From positions 69,678 through 133,677 of the forward strand of contig JAETSX010000003.1 of NCBI GenBank assembly GCA_021769425.1: a stretch of DNA of 64,000 nucleotides. The letters are read 5' to 3'. Below, one piece after another: positions 2,575 through 20,153 of the stretch. Each line of letters starts with the position of its first letter. Position 1 is the stretch's first letter. Under the pieces are notes generated by a model. That model was not told the origin of the DNA and searched no databases. It saw only the letters and a list, made by a program, of their open reading frames with translations. Source of the DNA: Eubacterium sp. Its GTDB lineage: Bacteria; Bacillota; Clostridia; Lachnospirales; Lachnospiraceae. A program made the position numbers and the translations under genes.

Positions 2575-3615
2575 TTGACGATTACGGAGGAAGAAAAATT
2601 GAAGCTGATTATACAGATACCATGCTATAACGAGGCAGAAACACTGGAAATTGCCTTGAATGATCTGCCTAGGCAGATAGATGGAATCGACGAAATTGAA
2701 TATCTGATTATCAATGACGGCAGCAAGGACAACACCGTAGAGGTGGCAAGAAACTGGGGCGTAAACTATGTGGTGGATCTGAAACGGAATAAGGGGCTGG
2801 CCAAGGGATTTATGGCGGGACTGGACGCCTGCCTTAGAAATGGGGCGGACATTATCGTCAACACAGACGCCGATAACCAGTACTGCGCGGATGATATTGA
2901 GAAAATCGTCCGTCCCATACTGGAAGGGAAAACAGACATCGTCATTGGTGCAAGGCCGGTGGACGATACGGAGCACTGGTCTCCGTTAAAGAAAAAGCTG
3001 CAGCATTTCGGAAGCTGGGTGGTGCGCAAAGCCTCCCGCAGCGATATTCCCGATGCGCCCAGCGGTTTCAGGGCTTACAGCAGAGAAGCTGCCATGCGCC
3101 TGAATGTAGTCAATGAGTATACTTACACCTTAGAAACTATTGTTCAGGCCGGAAGAAGCAAGATTGCCATGGAATCCGTGCCCATCCGCACCAATGCGGA
3201 ACTGCGGCCTTCCCGGCTGTTCAGCAGCATGTTCGGCTATGTGAAGAAATCTATGCTCACAATTTTGAGGGCTTTTATGATGTACCGTCCCCTGATGGTC
3301 TTTTCCGTTATCGGCAGTATTATTTTTGCCGTGGGACTTGCCATCGGCATACGGTTTTTAGTATATTATTTCGGCGGAAACGGCGCAGGCCATATGCAGT
3401 CTTTGATTCTGGCCAGCACGCTGATGCTGTTGGGATTCCAGACCTTTATTGTAGGGCTTCTGGCAGATATTATCTCGGCTAACCGGAAAATATTGGAAGA
3501 TGTTCAATATCATGTCCGAAAACTGGATTTTGATCAAGCTGCGGAAAAAAAGAACGAGGCCAGGGACAGCGGGACTGCCCGGAAGCCGGATACAGATAAG
3601 AACATGGGAAAATAA
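2575..3615 (+). CDS. Membrane-anchored GT2, GtrB/CsbB/DPM1-like polyprenyl-phosphate glycosyltransferase
   Basis: IQIPCYNEAETL...LIINDGSKDNT...NTDADNQY catalytic domain, plus two C-terminal TM helices (LMVFSVIGSIIFAVGLAIGI, LILASTLMLLGFQTFIVGLLADII). The start is TTG and uncertain. Confidence 0.7.
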   Translation: MTITEEEKLKLIIQIPCYNEAETLEIALNDLPRQIDGIDEIEYLIINDGSKDNTVEVARNWGVNYVVDLKRNKGLAKGFMAGLDACLRNGADIIVNTDADNQYCADDIEKIVRPILEGKTDIVIGARPVDDTEHWSPLKKKLQHFGSWVVRKASRSDIPDAPSGFRAYSREAAMRLNVVNEYTYTLETIVQAGRSKIAMESVPIRTNAELRPSRLFSSMFGYVKKSMLTILRAFMMYRPLMVFSVIGSIIFAVGLAIGIRFLVYYFGGNGAGHMQSLILASTLMLLGFQTFIVGLLADIISANRKILEDVQYHVRKLDFDQAAEKKNEARDSGTARKPDTDKNMGK

Positions 3616-19382: not shown

Positions 19383-19395
19383 CTTTAGAAACGAT

Positions 19396-19447
19396 AATCC
19401 CCCGATTGTAGCAAGATACAGTCGGGGGATTGGCTGTTTCTTTATTC
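19396..19447 (+). terminator. Rho-independent terminator of the beta-helix gene
   Basis: 10-bp stem aatcccccga/tcgggggatt (19396-19431) followed by a T-rich tail. Confidence 0.7.
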
Positions 19448-19715
19448 AGTTCCTAAAGGTAAAATTTTTTCAGCCGCGGAGGAAGGATTTATCAGTGAGA
19501 TGCATGAAAATTTATGTTGCTTGGAAACACTGTCAGCATATGGTCTGTTCGGAGGTACGCGATTGAGCGTGTCCTTGCTGGGACACACTCTGGCATAAAA
19601 AGGTTCCTATTGAAAAAGGATGATCACAACAACTTACATTGGCTCAATACTTTAACATAGAGGCTTTTGGGTGAATCAACTTTTGAAAATGGGGAAACTC
19701 AAAGGAAATTGCATA

Positions 19716-19744
19716 TTGCAAAGAAAATCCGCATATGCTATAAT
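19716..19744 (+). promoter_or_regulatory. Sigma-A-type promoter for the candidate antitoxin sRNA
   Basis: TTGCAA (19716-19721), a 17-nt spacer, then TATAAT (19739-19744). Confidence 0.65.
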
Positions 19745-19750
19745 TGCCGT

Positions 19751-19840
19751 AGGCAAAAAGTTATAGCGTTCCAATATGAACGAAGAAACGAATCCCCGAA
19801 CCGTAGTAGCGTACAGTCCGGGGATTCTTCTTTTCTTTTA
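19751..19840 (+). ncRNA. Candidate type I antitoxin sRNA (RNA II-like), about 90 nt
   Basis: It runs from the promoter above to hairpin 19790-19827 plus ttcttttctttt. Its 5' segment 19755-19781 is complementary to the toxin mRNA start region. Confidence 0.55.
19790..19840. terminator. Bidirectional terminator shared by the convergent toxin mRNA and sRNA
   Basis: 9-bp GC-rich stem gaatccccg/cggggattc, with T-runs after it on the + strand and a gtttcttcgtt run on the - strand. Confidence 0.6.
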
Positions 19841-19865
19841 TACTGGCAAAGCGCCCAGTAGGTTA

Positions 19866-19961
19866 TTAGTTGTCCTTGTGGTCACTGTCTAACCATTTGA
19901 TGATGTAGTGGCAGGCTACACCAGCCGCAACAGCGACTAAAAAAGTTATAACGTATTCCAA
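19866..19961 (-). CDS. 31-aa hydrophobic peptide, candidate Fst/PepA1-like type I toxin (absent from the ORF track)
   Basis: TTG start 8 nt after GAGGAGG. The product is MEYVITFLVAVAAGVACHYIIKWLDSDHKDN, followed by TAA TAA: a single TM helix with a charged acidic tail. Confidence 0.6.
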   Translation of the reverse strand: MEYVITFLVAVAAGVACHYIIKWLDSDHKDN

Positions 19962-20008
19962 TATAAACACCTCCTCCCGTTGCCGGGTATCGGTTGGACA
20001 ACATGAAC

Positions 20009-20037
20009 ATTATATCTCATTTTCAGAGTGTCAGCAA
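20009..20037 (-). promoter_or_regulatory. Sigma-A-type promoter for the toxin mRNA
   Basis: On the minus strand, TTGCTG (20037-20032), a 17-nt spacer, then TATAAT (20014-20009). Confidence 0.6.
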
Positions 20038-20124
20038 TAATTGACATTCTTTTTTATGTTCTGCAGCAAAATTAAATAAAAAATAGGAAAAGTACCTTTC
20101 AAAGCTATTCTTTATTTCCTCCGG

Positions 20125-20153
20125 TTGCCAAGTATAATATTTCGTGCTATAAT
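20125..20153 (+). promoter_or_regulatory. Sigma-A-type promoter for the 20181 operon
   Basis: TTGCCA (20125-20130), a 17-nt spacer, then TATAAT (20148-20153), 27 nt before the ATG. Confidence 0.65.

Follow-up and report, generated by a model that had tools for sequence, protein, structure and literature searches.

A probable Fst/par-like toxin-antitoxin cassette in a Eubacterium genome, a member of an unannotated family in gut Lachnospiraceae

Introduction

The par locus is defined by convergent promoters, direct repeats, a bidirectional terminator, and the structures 5'-SL and 5'-UH (PMC7472228). Toxins of the Fst/Ldr superfamily carry a conserved Trp between the transmembrane helix and the charged tail, together with a P/D/S/T-XXX-G(C) motif (PMC7472228; the superfamily is also defined in PMC2887945), and the Pro of PXXXG is reported to be essential for the toxicity of Fst(pAD1) and Lpt (PMC7472228). 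Here we describe a 320-bp cassette in a 64,000-nucleotide stretch of Eubacterium sp. (contig JAETSX010000003.1, positions 69,678 to 133,677), the whole of which is hereafter called the window. The cassette is set between two cell-surface glycan genes; one of its strands encodes a membrane peptide of 31 residues, and the other a small RNA that converges on it. We consider it probable, at roughly 0.8, that it is a toxin-antitoxin (TA) system of type I and of the Fst/par (RNA I/RNA II) kind.

Other systems bear on this assignment. In the SprA1/SprA1AS pair of Staphylococcus aureus, the overlap of toxin and antisense RNA lies at the toxin RNA's 3' end, and the functional interaction takes place at the 5' translation-initiation region (TIR), outside the overlap (PMC8594479). 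Fst-like sequences in Clostridiales were reported by Fozo et al. (2010), who showed a sequence from Clostridium bolteae, and the Lachnospiraceae clade described below may have been glimpsed before in that work.

Results

Layout of the cassette in the window

The cassette consisted of two convergent units that share a terminator hairpin. Its elements were as follows.

19716 to 19744, plus strand: antitoxin promoter TTGCAA-17-TGcTATAAT, 10/12 in the promoter scan, with the TG of an extended -10 element at 19736-19737
19751 to 19840, plus strand: predicted antitoxin RNA (RNA II analogue) of ~90 nt, with the transcription start site (TSS) placed 7 nt past the -10 element by inference
19755 to 19782, plus strand: antitoxin interaction site (repeat copy 2), located where the antisense RNA has its unstructured 5' end, assigned from the repeat, RNAduplex, covariation, and the predicted fold
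19790 to 19827, both strands: shared bidirectional terminator hairpin, folding on each strand, with compensatory changes at 8 of its pairs
19841 to 19860, minus strand: small hairpin in the 3' untranslated region (UTR), between the toxin stop codon and the terminator, flagged by the scan and with compensatory changes at three pairs across the family
19866 to 19961, minus strand: toxin open reading frame (ORF), TTG start, 31 codons plus TAA, peptide MEYVITFLVAVAAGVACHYIIKWLDSDHKDN, assigned from sequence reading, homologues, and codon turnover
19869 to 19875, minus strand: GGACAAC, the 3' arm of a long-distance helix (the Asp30 and Asn31 codons, preceded by the final base of the Lys29 codon)
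19940 to 19970, minus strand: toxin TIR interaction site (repeat copy 1), which reaches from the last Shine-Dalgarno (SD) base to the first base of codon 8, assigned from RNAduplex and covariation
19970 to 19976, minus strand: SD sequence GAGGAGG, 8 nt upstream of the start and predicted to be partly sequestered in a 5' UTR stem (CCC/GGG, ACC/GGU)
19996 to 20002, minus strand: GUUGUCC, the mRNA 5' end and 5' arm of the long-distance helix, pairing with 19869-19875
19780 to 20002, minus strand: predicted toxin mRNA (RNA I analogue) of ~223 nt, placed by the conserved GUUGUCC start and by a subthreshold SpF66 match at 19780-20001
20009 to 20014, minus strand: toxin promoter -10 element TATAAT, from sequence reading, with a hexamer matching at five or more of six positions in 67 of 74 relatives
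20032 to 20037, minus strand: toxin promoter -35 element TTGCTG, from sequence reading, matching at 3/6 positions, with a 17-nt spacer to the -10 element

The initial annotation, made from the letters of the window, had named a minus-strand ORF from the TTG at 19961 to the TAA at 19866, GAGGAGG 8 nt upstream of it, promoters TTGCTG-17-TATAAT (20037-20009) and TTGCAA-17-TATAAT (19716-19744), and a single GC-rich hairpin at 19790-19827 with T-runs on either strand. All of these were present, with the reservation that the toxin promoter went unscored in the scan, its -35 element matching at three positions only. On the minus strand the hairpin had 16 pairs, 8 of them G-C, and the tail GTTTCTTCGT, and on the plus strand it folded with the tail UUCUUUUCUUUU. 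A 27-nt repeat had also been claimed, and it was recovered at 19755-19781 and 19940-19968 as blocks of 15 nt (93%) and 13 nt (92%) separated by a 2-nt indel. Terminator-like sites in the region were above background (6 seen and 1.1 expected), and promoter-like sites were not (3 seen and 2.2 expected).

The conserved GUUGUCC began at the seventh nucleotide past the last -10 base, with six bases between. In the predicted fold of the antisense RNA, nucleotides 1-16 were unpaired and the 3' end formed the hairpin and U-run. The toxin stop codon at 19866 fell outside the predicted antisense RNA (19751-19840), which overlapped only the 3' end of the toxin mRNA. Promoters of the same type as the toxin promoter (TTGCTG, TTGTCG, or TTGCCG-17-TATAAT) recurred in L038, L043, L067, L071, and L073, the L-numbers being our labels for fetched genome loci that carry relatives of the window cassette.

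Two further elements lay at the promoters. A palindrome at 19745-19755 (TGCCGTAGGCA) stood directly past the antisense -10 element, and its TGCC-N4-GGCA changed in step to TGTC-N4-GACA in L023, L029, L032, L038, L039, L043-L046, L067, and L069; it could be a protein-binding site or, should transcription start earlier than predicted, form a 5' hairpin. An inverted repeat followed by a T-run, at 20025-20050 on the plus strand, overlapped the toxin -35 element. Its arms covaried in relatives with the same promoter type (GTCGG/CCGAC in L043, GTCGA/TCGAC in L067, ATCA/TGAT in L071), and the element could act as an operator, or else as an outer terminator or insulator that keeps transcription from reading through into the downstream gene.

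Comparison with par(pAD1) and other type I systems

The layout in the window fits the descriptions of par and of Fst/Ldr systems in PMC7472228 and T1TAdb (PMC8594479). Four features were the same as in par(pAD1) of Enterococcus faecalis: convergent promoters with a shared bidirectional terminator; an antisense RNA that lies off the ORF and reaches the translation-initiation region through direct repeats; an SD-burying 5' structure together with pairing of the mRNA 5' end near the 3' end of the ORF, predicted in the window and corresponding to the 5'-SL and 5'-UH of PMC7472228; and a peptide of ~31-33 residues with a transmembrane helix, then W/V-L-D/E, then a charged tail. Other features differed. 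In place of PXXXG the window clade had AXXXG, in some members with T or S at the first position, and it had an invariant C-H-Y three residues past the Gly; its interaction site was one ~28-bp block starting at the last SD base, whereas par has separated repeats, DRa and DRb, over the SD and start codon; and its hosts were Clostridia (Lachnospiraceae). In par, a YUNR U-turn in the RNA I terminator loop is the pairing initiator, and no obvious YUNR was seen by eye, rather than by a systematic count, in the window loop CGCUAC or in the common variant CUGCAA.

The closest database match of the toxin mRNA was SpF66, which appears to be a pneumococcal Fst-type RNA and with which the cassette shared the KWLD junction and the xXXXG spacing, the hosts being Streptococcus rather than Lachnospiraceae. 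The Ldr/Rdl systems of Enterobacteria likewise have a Trp between the transmembrane helix and the charged tail (PMC7472228), but their regulation is hok/sok-like and involves a leader ORF together with an antisense RNA on the 5' side, and the window layout was not of that design. The type I toxins of Clostridioides difficile (NF047374) are, like the system proposed here, Clostridia type I systems often found on mobile elements, but they have ~50 residues. SprA1/PepA1, a member of the Fst family, has a 3'-overlapping antisense RNA acting at the 5' TIR, as is predicted for the window, and its peptide shares the W-L junction and a Cys close to the Gly. In contrast to the window peptide, PepA1 carries PXXXGC and its tail is basic, and no match between the two was found at the sequence level.

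Conservation and mobility of the cassette

At least 398 stretches encoding the peptide were found in species-representative genomes, nearly all of them from Lachnospiraceae. The carriers included Roseburia, Dorea, Acetatifactor, Mediterraneibacter, Blautia, Eisenbergiella, Eubacterium sp. 14-2, and many mouse-gut metagenome-assembled genomes (MAGs). The IMG/VR collection held 100 confirmed relatives on viral contigs of 3.5 to 119 kb. The genome loci analyzed in detail were the best-scoring 80 of the at least 398, and 74 regions oriented on the toxin could be compared. The initial annotation had made conservation of the repeat and ORF one of the points on which it stood or fell, and both were kept: the whole layout, with its two promoters, SD, ORF, shared hairpin, and repeat, was present in ~70 of the 74 regions. 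The order of elements in these regions was toxin -10 element, 5' UTR, SD, start codon, ORF, small 3' UTR hairpin, GC-rich hairpin, copy of the initiation region, and antisense promoter. A toxin -10 element matching at five or more of six positions stood at the same distance from the 5' UTR in 67 of 74 relatives, usually as TGnTATAAT, and the SD sequence GGGAGGAGG was found in 71 of 74. On the antitoxin side, TGCTATAAT was present in 63 of ~70 relatives and the -35 element TTG[CAT]AA in 52 of ~70.

When the window was searched with an nhmmer profile built from these regions, a single full copy was found, spanning 19707-20019 (E = 4.8e-96). Homology in BLASTN ended at the two promoters (19701-20023, or up to 20055 where the -35 type was shared), and in none of the 80 genome loci did the flanks match those of the window, only the cassette itself being shared. 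Since homology stopped at the promoters and the flanks differed, the cassette is a 320-bp unit set in unrelated contexts, which across the family included inovirus, plasmid, and prophage DNA. One locus, L002, had a 94%-identical cassette in another genomic context. An intact, unannotated cassette encoding the peptide MDIIATFLMTVTAGVICHIVCKWLDRHDKGNK was found in Bajarodino virus 15 (Inoviridae, 8.5 kb, from rodent feces), and the 2.4-kb plasmid pRGI00989 matched the profile over positions 6-286 of ~314 (E = 1.2e-27), a match at profile level in which the ORF was not inspected. The window copy has been described as a chromosomal TA embedded in a glycan locus. With genes for a glycerophosphotransferase, a beta-helix protein, and a polysaccharide pyruvyl transferase as its neighbors, the term glycan locus is correct, but the association was not conserved, and the synteny that the initial annotation had suggested looking for in related genomes was found in none of the 80 loci.

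Multiple copies and recurrent neighbors were also observed. L040 carried two cassettes in tandem (~2590-3250), and several MAGs had two copies on different contigs (L012/L029, L020/L070, and L030/L065); Fst-A and Fst-B of S. pneumoniae are also in tandem (PMC2887945). In L083-L087, the loci of homologue P0070, the cassette lay between SMI1_KNR4/SUKH immunity-protein genes and a fucose isomerase/FGGY kinase gene pair. The Fst loci of S. pneumoniae adjoin the fucose regulator gene fcsR (PMC2887945), and chromosomal Fst loci have been linked to sugar metabolism (PMC7472228); the fucose-gene neighborhood common to the two groups may be a coincidence.

Pairing of the antisense RNA with the toxin initiation region

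The plus-strand RNA had been proposed to be complementary to the toxin start region through codon 8, and the predicted energies and the family covariation both agreed with this. The duplex of the window antisense RNA with the TIR reached -31.7 kcal/mol in RNAduplex, compared with -8.1 +/- 2.3 for 1000 shuffles (best shuffle, -16.4). RNAcofold of the full RNAs returned only the 61-bp terminator-overlap duplex (ddG, ~-61 kcal/mol); RNAduplex was used for the TIR because the terminator-overlap and TIR duplexes together form a pseudoknot in a nested model. Across the family the pairing block was ~28 bp long, with a conserved bulge of 1-2 nt after codon 2.

Covariation was scored over 57 distinct pairs of an initiation region and the reverse complement of its repeat copy, with 26 proposed intermolecular pairs and 1475 cells; in the MAFFT alignment of these sequences (A2), the TTG-start rows were off by one column, which counts against the structure and makes the figures conservative. 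Standard pairs filled 94.6% of cells, compared with 81.2% after shuffling and 36-52% with slid partners. Changes on both sides were seen at 20 of the 26 pairs (187 cells), compared with 10.1 pairs (46.5 cells) in the shuffled set, and the covariation score was 0.429, compared with 0.166 for shuffled partners (0 of 500 reached it) and 0.05-0.10 for slid partners. Given that the loci are related, the number of distinct pair types (60 versus 41.7) and the slid controls are the safer measures. The non-Watson-Crick cells comprised 112 G.U pairs and 80 unpaired cells, an excess of G.U which is consistent with selection for RNA pairing rather than DNA identity.

The pairing was also specific. Cognate duplexes had a mean of -33.9 +/- 3.1 kcal/mol and noncognate duplexes -19.2 +/- 6.4, and for 41 of 57 toxins no antisense RNA paired better than the cognate one. 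Copies within one genome or locus were mutually orthogonal in predicted pairing (cognate, -29 to -39 kcal/mol; cross-pairing, -8 to -27 kcal/mol). The first eight codons varied among loci and the downstream repeat copy varied in step with them, and even the TTG start of the window was mirrored in its own repeat copy (ATATTGGAA), as were those of L002 and L062.

Structure of the toxin mRNA

The predicted 223-nt toxin mRNA folded at -83.1 kcal/mol (z = -6.15). An RNAalifold consensus of 50 members contained 51 pairs, of which 16 were compensatory, and included both the terminator and the 3' UTR hairpin as well as stems around the SD; the latter, CCC/GGG and ACC/GGU, corresponded to predicted consensus pairs 9-11/33-35 and 16-18/26-28. 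The helix between the mRNA 5' end and the end of the ORF (GUUGUCC/GGACAAC) had 7/7 pairs in 47 of 50 sequences. Nine sequences had the variant GUUGCUC/GAGCAAC, with the peptide tail KSN instead of KDN, and one had GUUGUCU/AGACAAC. In the terminator hairpin, two G.U pairs on the toxin strand corresponded to two C.A mismatches on the antitoxin strand, suggesting that the terminator of the toxin RNA is the more stable of the two.

A second partner for the mRNA 5' end was apparent. Besides GGACAAC at the end of the ORF, the loop sequence GGCAAC of the hairpin in the 5' UTR was complementary to the 5' GUUGUC (19979-20002, minus strand), and both partners varied in step with the mRNA 5' end across the family. 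This dual complementarity may constitute an alternative-pairing switch.

The peptide family

The homologue search, for which the query was the ORF plus its in-frame upstream translation (41 residues in all), found 160 homologues of MEYVITFLVAVAAGVACHYIIKWLDSDHKDN in the protein collection, with a best E value of 3e-14 for the padded query. The family core AAGVACHYIIKWLD was near-invariant, and members called from their true start had 31-34 residues. Start codons at the equivalent position in the 74 regions were ATG in 63, TTG in 5, and GTG in 3, and the 31-codon reading of the window ORF was favored over a 34-codon GTG ORF because the ATG of the relatives aligns with the window TTG. The public names of the homologues were "hypothetical protein," with one "MAG TPA: toxin [Caudoviricetes sp.]" and one "cytochrome oxidase subunit [Bacteriophage sp.]."

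Residues 3-21 of the 31-residue window peptide (YVITFLVAVAAGVACHYII) were hydrophobic, in keeping with one transmembrane helix. In an alignment of 22 sequences, F7, A13, G14, V15, C17, H18, Y19, I21, K22, W23, L24, and D25 were invariant; W23 was also invariant in 60/60 unique ORFs and was followed by LD[SG]D.KDN[KE]. At position 10, the first of the motif, the window peptide had Ala, as did 51 of 60 ORFs, and the other 9 of the 60 had Thr; Ser was seen in homologue P0047 and Thr in the inovirus copy. Cys17 sat three residues past G14 rather than adjacent to it. Synonymous turnover showed coding constraint: L24 occurred as TTA, CTT, CTA, and CTG, and D25, C17, and A16 also switched between synonymous codons.

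Codons 14-23 (19893-19922) were nearly invariant at third positions as well (CAC, TAC, and TGG in 60/60 ORFs, and ATC in 59/60 and 57/60) and coincided with a hairpin predicted inside the ORF, in which alignment columns 81-88 pair with 96-103. This invariance may reflect an extra constraint at the RNA level or a sampling bias of the best 80 loci.

Relationship to Fst

In hhalign, a profile of the peptide aligned with Fst and FstEF0409 (sequences from PMC8147318) and the SpF66 peptide at 93% probability (pairwise E = 2.9e-7), in the register A10~P, G14~G, and W23~W, with G14 on the Gly of Fst. BLASTP gave 36% identity to the SpF66-encoded peptide. At the RNA level, the Rfam model RF02442 (SpF66_sRNA) gave subthreshold full-length matches of 26.5 bits in the window, 31.0 in L081, and 27.3 in L042, three divergent members. 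The Rfam consensus itself encodes an ORF ending in ...IIADVIAGIILYFVCKWLDGKE, with a weak match to NF033608 (18.9 bits), and SpF66 appears from that consensus to be a pneumococcal Fst-type toxin mRNA; its peptide fits the DXXXG S. pneumoniae clade of Fst peptides (PMC7472228). A literature text search on "SpF66" returned malaria-vaccine papers only, and one on the peptide core HYIIKWL returned no match in the papers searched.

Other matches were rejected. Those to the Rfam RsaJ, His leader, and Thr leader models were driven by terminator hairpins, and those to PHROG holins (E = 0.17-0.27) and to the C. difficile type I toxin model NF047374 (E = 0.09; 13 bits, with a cutoff of 60) were regarded as noise.

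Discussion

The Fst-like reading put forward in the initial annotation is upheld by a layout kept in ~70 of 74 loci, compensatory covariation, cognate specificity of the antisense RNAs, and the in-register alignment with Fst. Judged from sequence comparison, the peptide family probably represents a large, unannotated branch of the Fst/par systems, carried by gut Lachnospiraceae, filamentous phages, and small plasmids.

Several points weigh against this assignment. The hhalign and BLASTP E values refer only to pairwise comparisons, and scores of this sort are inflated by a transmembrane composition. The curated models to which an Fst/Ldr profile search would turn, Pfam PF13955 and NCBIfam NF033608, did not match the window peptide or three relatives at E <= 10; as a control, Fst and FstEF0409 also fell below the Pfam cutoff, yet they scored 34.7 and 36.3 bits on NF033608 (cutoff, 26). 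The solved structures of Fst and PepA1 had no sequence match to the peptide among PDB chains, sequence searches of Pfam, NCBIfam, PHROGs, and PDB with it gave nothing significant, and the SpF66 scores lie below the Rfam gathering score of 42. The window peptide and most of its clade have Ala in place of the Pro of PXXXG, and toxicity cannot be assumed, because this first motif position is the Pro that is reported to be essential in Fst and Lpt. In addition, the 80 best-scoring loci are closely related, so the cell counts overcount events, and concerted evolution of two DNA repeats could mimic covariation, but the G.U excess favors constraint at the RNA level. Finally, the weak -35 element and TTG start of the window copy may make its toxin output very low.

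If the cassette works as par does, the minus strand would be transcribed into a ~220-nt mRNA for a 31-residue, single-helix membrane peptide. The free mRNA would be poorly translatable through its own fold, with its 5' end paired to the end of the ORF and its SD partly buried. The plus strand would yield a ~90-nt antisense RNA from a near-consensus promoter, which is presumably stronger than the toxin promoter with its weak -35 element. The two RNAs would converge on one hairpin terminator, where they are fully complementary, and the free 5' end of the antisense RNA would pair with the stretch of toxin mRNA between the last SD base and codon 8 and so block 30S binding. Loss of the cassette or its carrier, or falling antisense synthesis, would then allow the peptide to be made and to damage the membrane; the relative stabilities of the toxin mRNA and the antisense RNA would also enter into this mechanism. 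The most likely biological role would be element maintenance or addiction, and such a selfish-cassette role fits because the unit is carried by a 2.4-kb plasmid, inoviruses, and prophages and moves among chromosomal sites. Stress response and phage exclusion are possible alternative roles for the cassette.

A different explanation is that the peptide is a small membrane protein tuned by its antisense RNA, with a regulatory or accessory function, so that the locus would be a small gene with a cis-antisense RNA and no addiction module. The Ala at the position of the essential Pro (PMC7472228) and the silence of the curated Fst models speak for such a protein. Its repression is nonetheless layered, with a buried SD, a 5'-3' lock, and antisense RNA directed at the start codon from a near-consensus promoter, as is typical of harmful products; the unit is carried by the small plasmid, inoviruses, and prophages and moves among unrelated chromosomal sites; and the peptide resembles Fst-family toxins in register. 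We therefore consider an accessory protein unlikely.

Somewhat less probable still is that the family is a genuine type I TA family of which the window copy is silent or decaying. The toxin -35 element TTGCTG, with 3/6 matches and no score in the scan, and a TTG start where 63 of 74 relatives have ATG would be expected of a decaying copy. The window peptide, however, retains every invariant residue, its cognate duplex (-31.7 kcal/mol) is within the family range, its repeat copy has changed together with the TTG start, and the same promoter type and TTG start occur in other intact loci. The 94%-identical cassette of L002, in another context, also implies a recent transfer, which counts against a silent copy. 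That the features are unrelated, the hairpin being the terminator of a flanking gene, the repeat a neutral DNA duplication, and the ORF spurious, is suggested by promoter-like hexamers not above background (3 versus 2.2 expected) and by an upstream-gene terminator that resembles the cassette hairpin, but it is effectively refuted by the separate terminator of the upstream gene (19395-19432), the conservation of the whole 320-bp unit in hundreds of unrelated contexts, the coding constraint on the ORF, and the compensatory and wobble changes by which the repeat copies covary.

Returning to the Fst/par reading, what is known is the kind of system, and what is new is a large, unannotated Lachnospiraceae clade of it; the way in which Fst/par systems are understood to work is unchanged, and the cassette is not mechanistically surprising. 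The finding does expose an annotation gap, since type I TA systems are nearly invisible to annotation pipelines and this whole clade lies below the Pfam, NCBIfam, and Rfam thresholds. The clade that was missed is present at hundreds of gut Lachnospiraceae loci and on ~100 viral contigs, as well as in inoviruses and one small plasmid. The covariation-supported model of both RNAs and of their pairing could seed an Rfam or NCBIfam family, and the cassette could serve as a marker of mobile DNA in gut metagenomes. It could also supply counterselection or plasmid-stabilization parts for genetically difficult Clostridia, a use to which the type I toxins of C. difficile have reportedly been put, to go by the title of the 2020 work of Peltier et al., as cited in PMC8594479.

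More speculatively, the KWLD cassettes might be self-contained mobile units of 320 bp whose specificity is reprogrammed by covariation of codons 1-8 with the antisense 5' end, giving many orthogonal addiction or exclusion modules per community or genome, and in which a three-way switch of the toxin mRNA (its 5' end against the GGCAAC loop or the ORF end) times translation. We regard this extension as doubtful; to our knowledge, the logic of a three-way mRNA switch has not been described for Fst systems.

Other sequence around the cassette

The ~260 bp upstream of the cassette (19440-19700, in the 0.8-kb spacer) had no match in any fetched locus, and the sole feature assigned there was a weak minus-strand match to a promoter, at 19536-19509. 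Downstream, a 691-residue membrane protein is encoded from 20181; neither it nor its 708-residue neighbor matched Pfam, and a strong promoter-like site, TTGCCA-17-TATAAT with a TG (11/12), at 20125-20153 lay upstream of the gene for the 691-residue protein. The terminator of the upstream beta-helix gene (19395-19443) was 71% identical over 48 nt to the cassette hairpin and its tail (19791-19838) and was matched weakly by the family profile on both strands (E = 8e-5 and 3e-4). This hairpin may be the relic of another cassette or mark a preferred insertion site.

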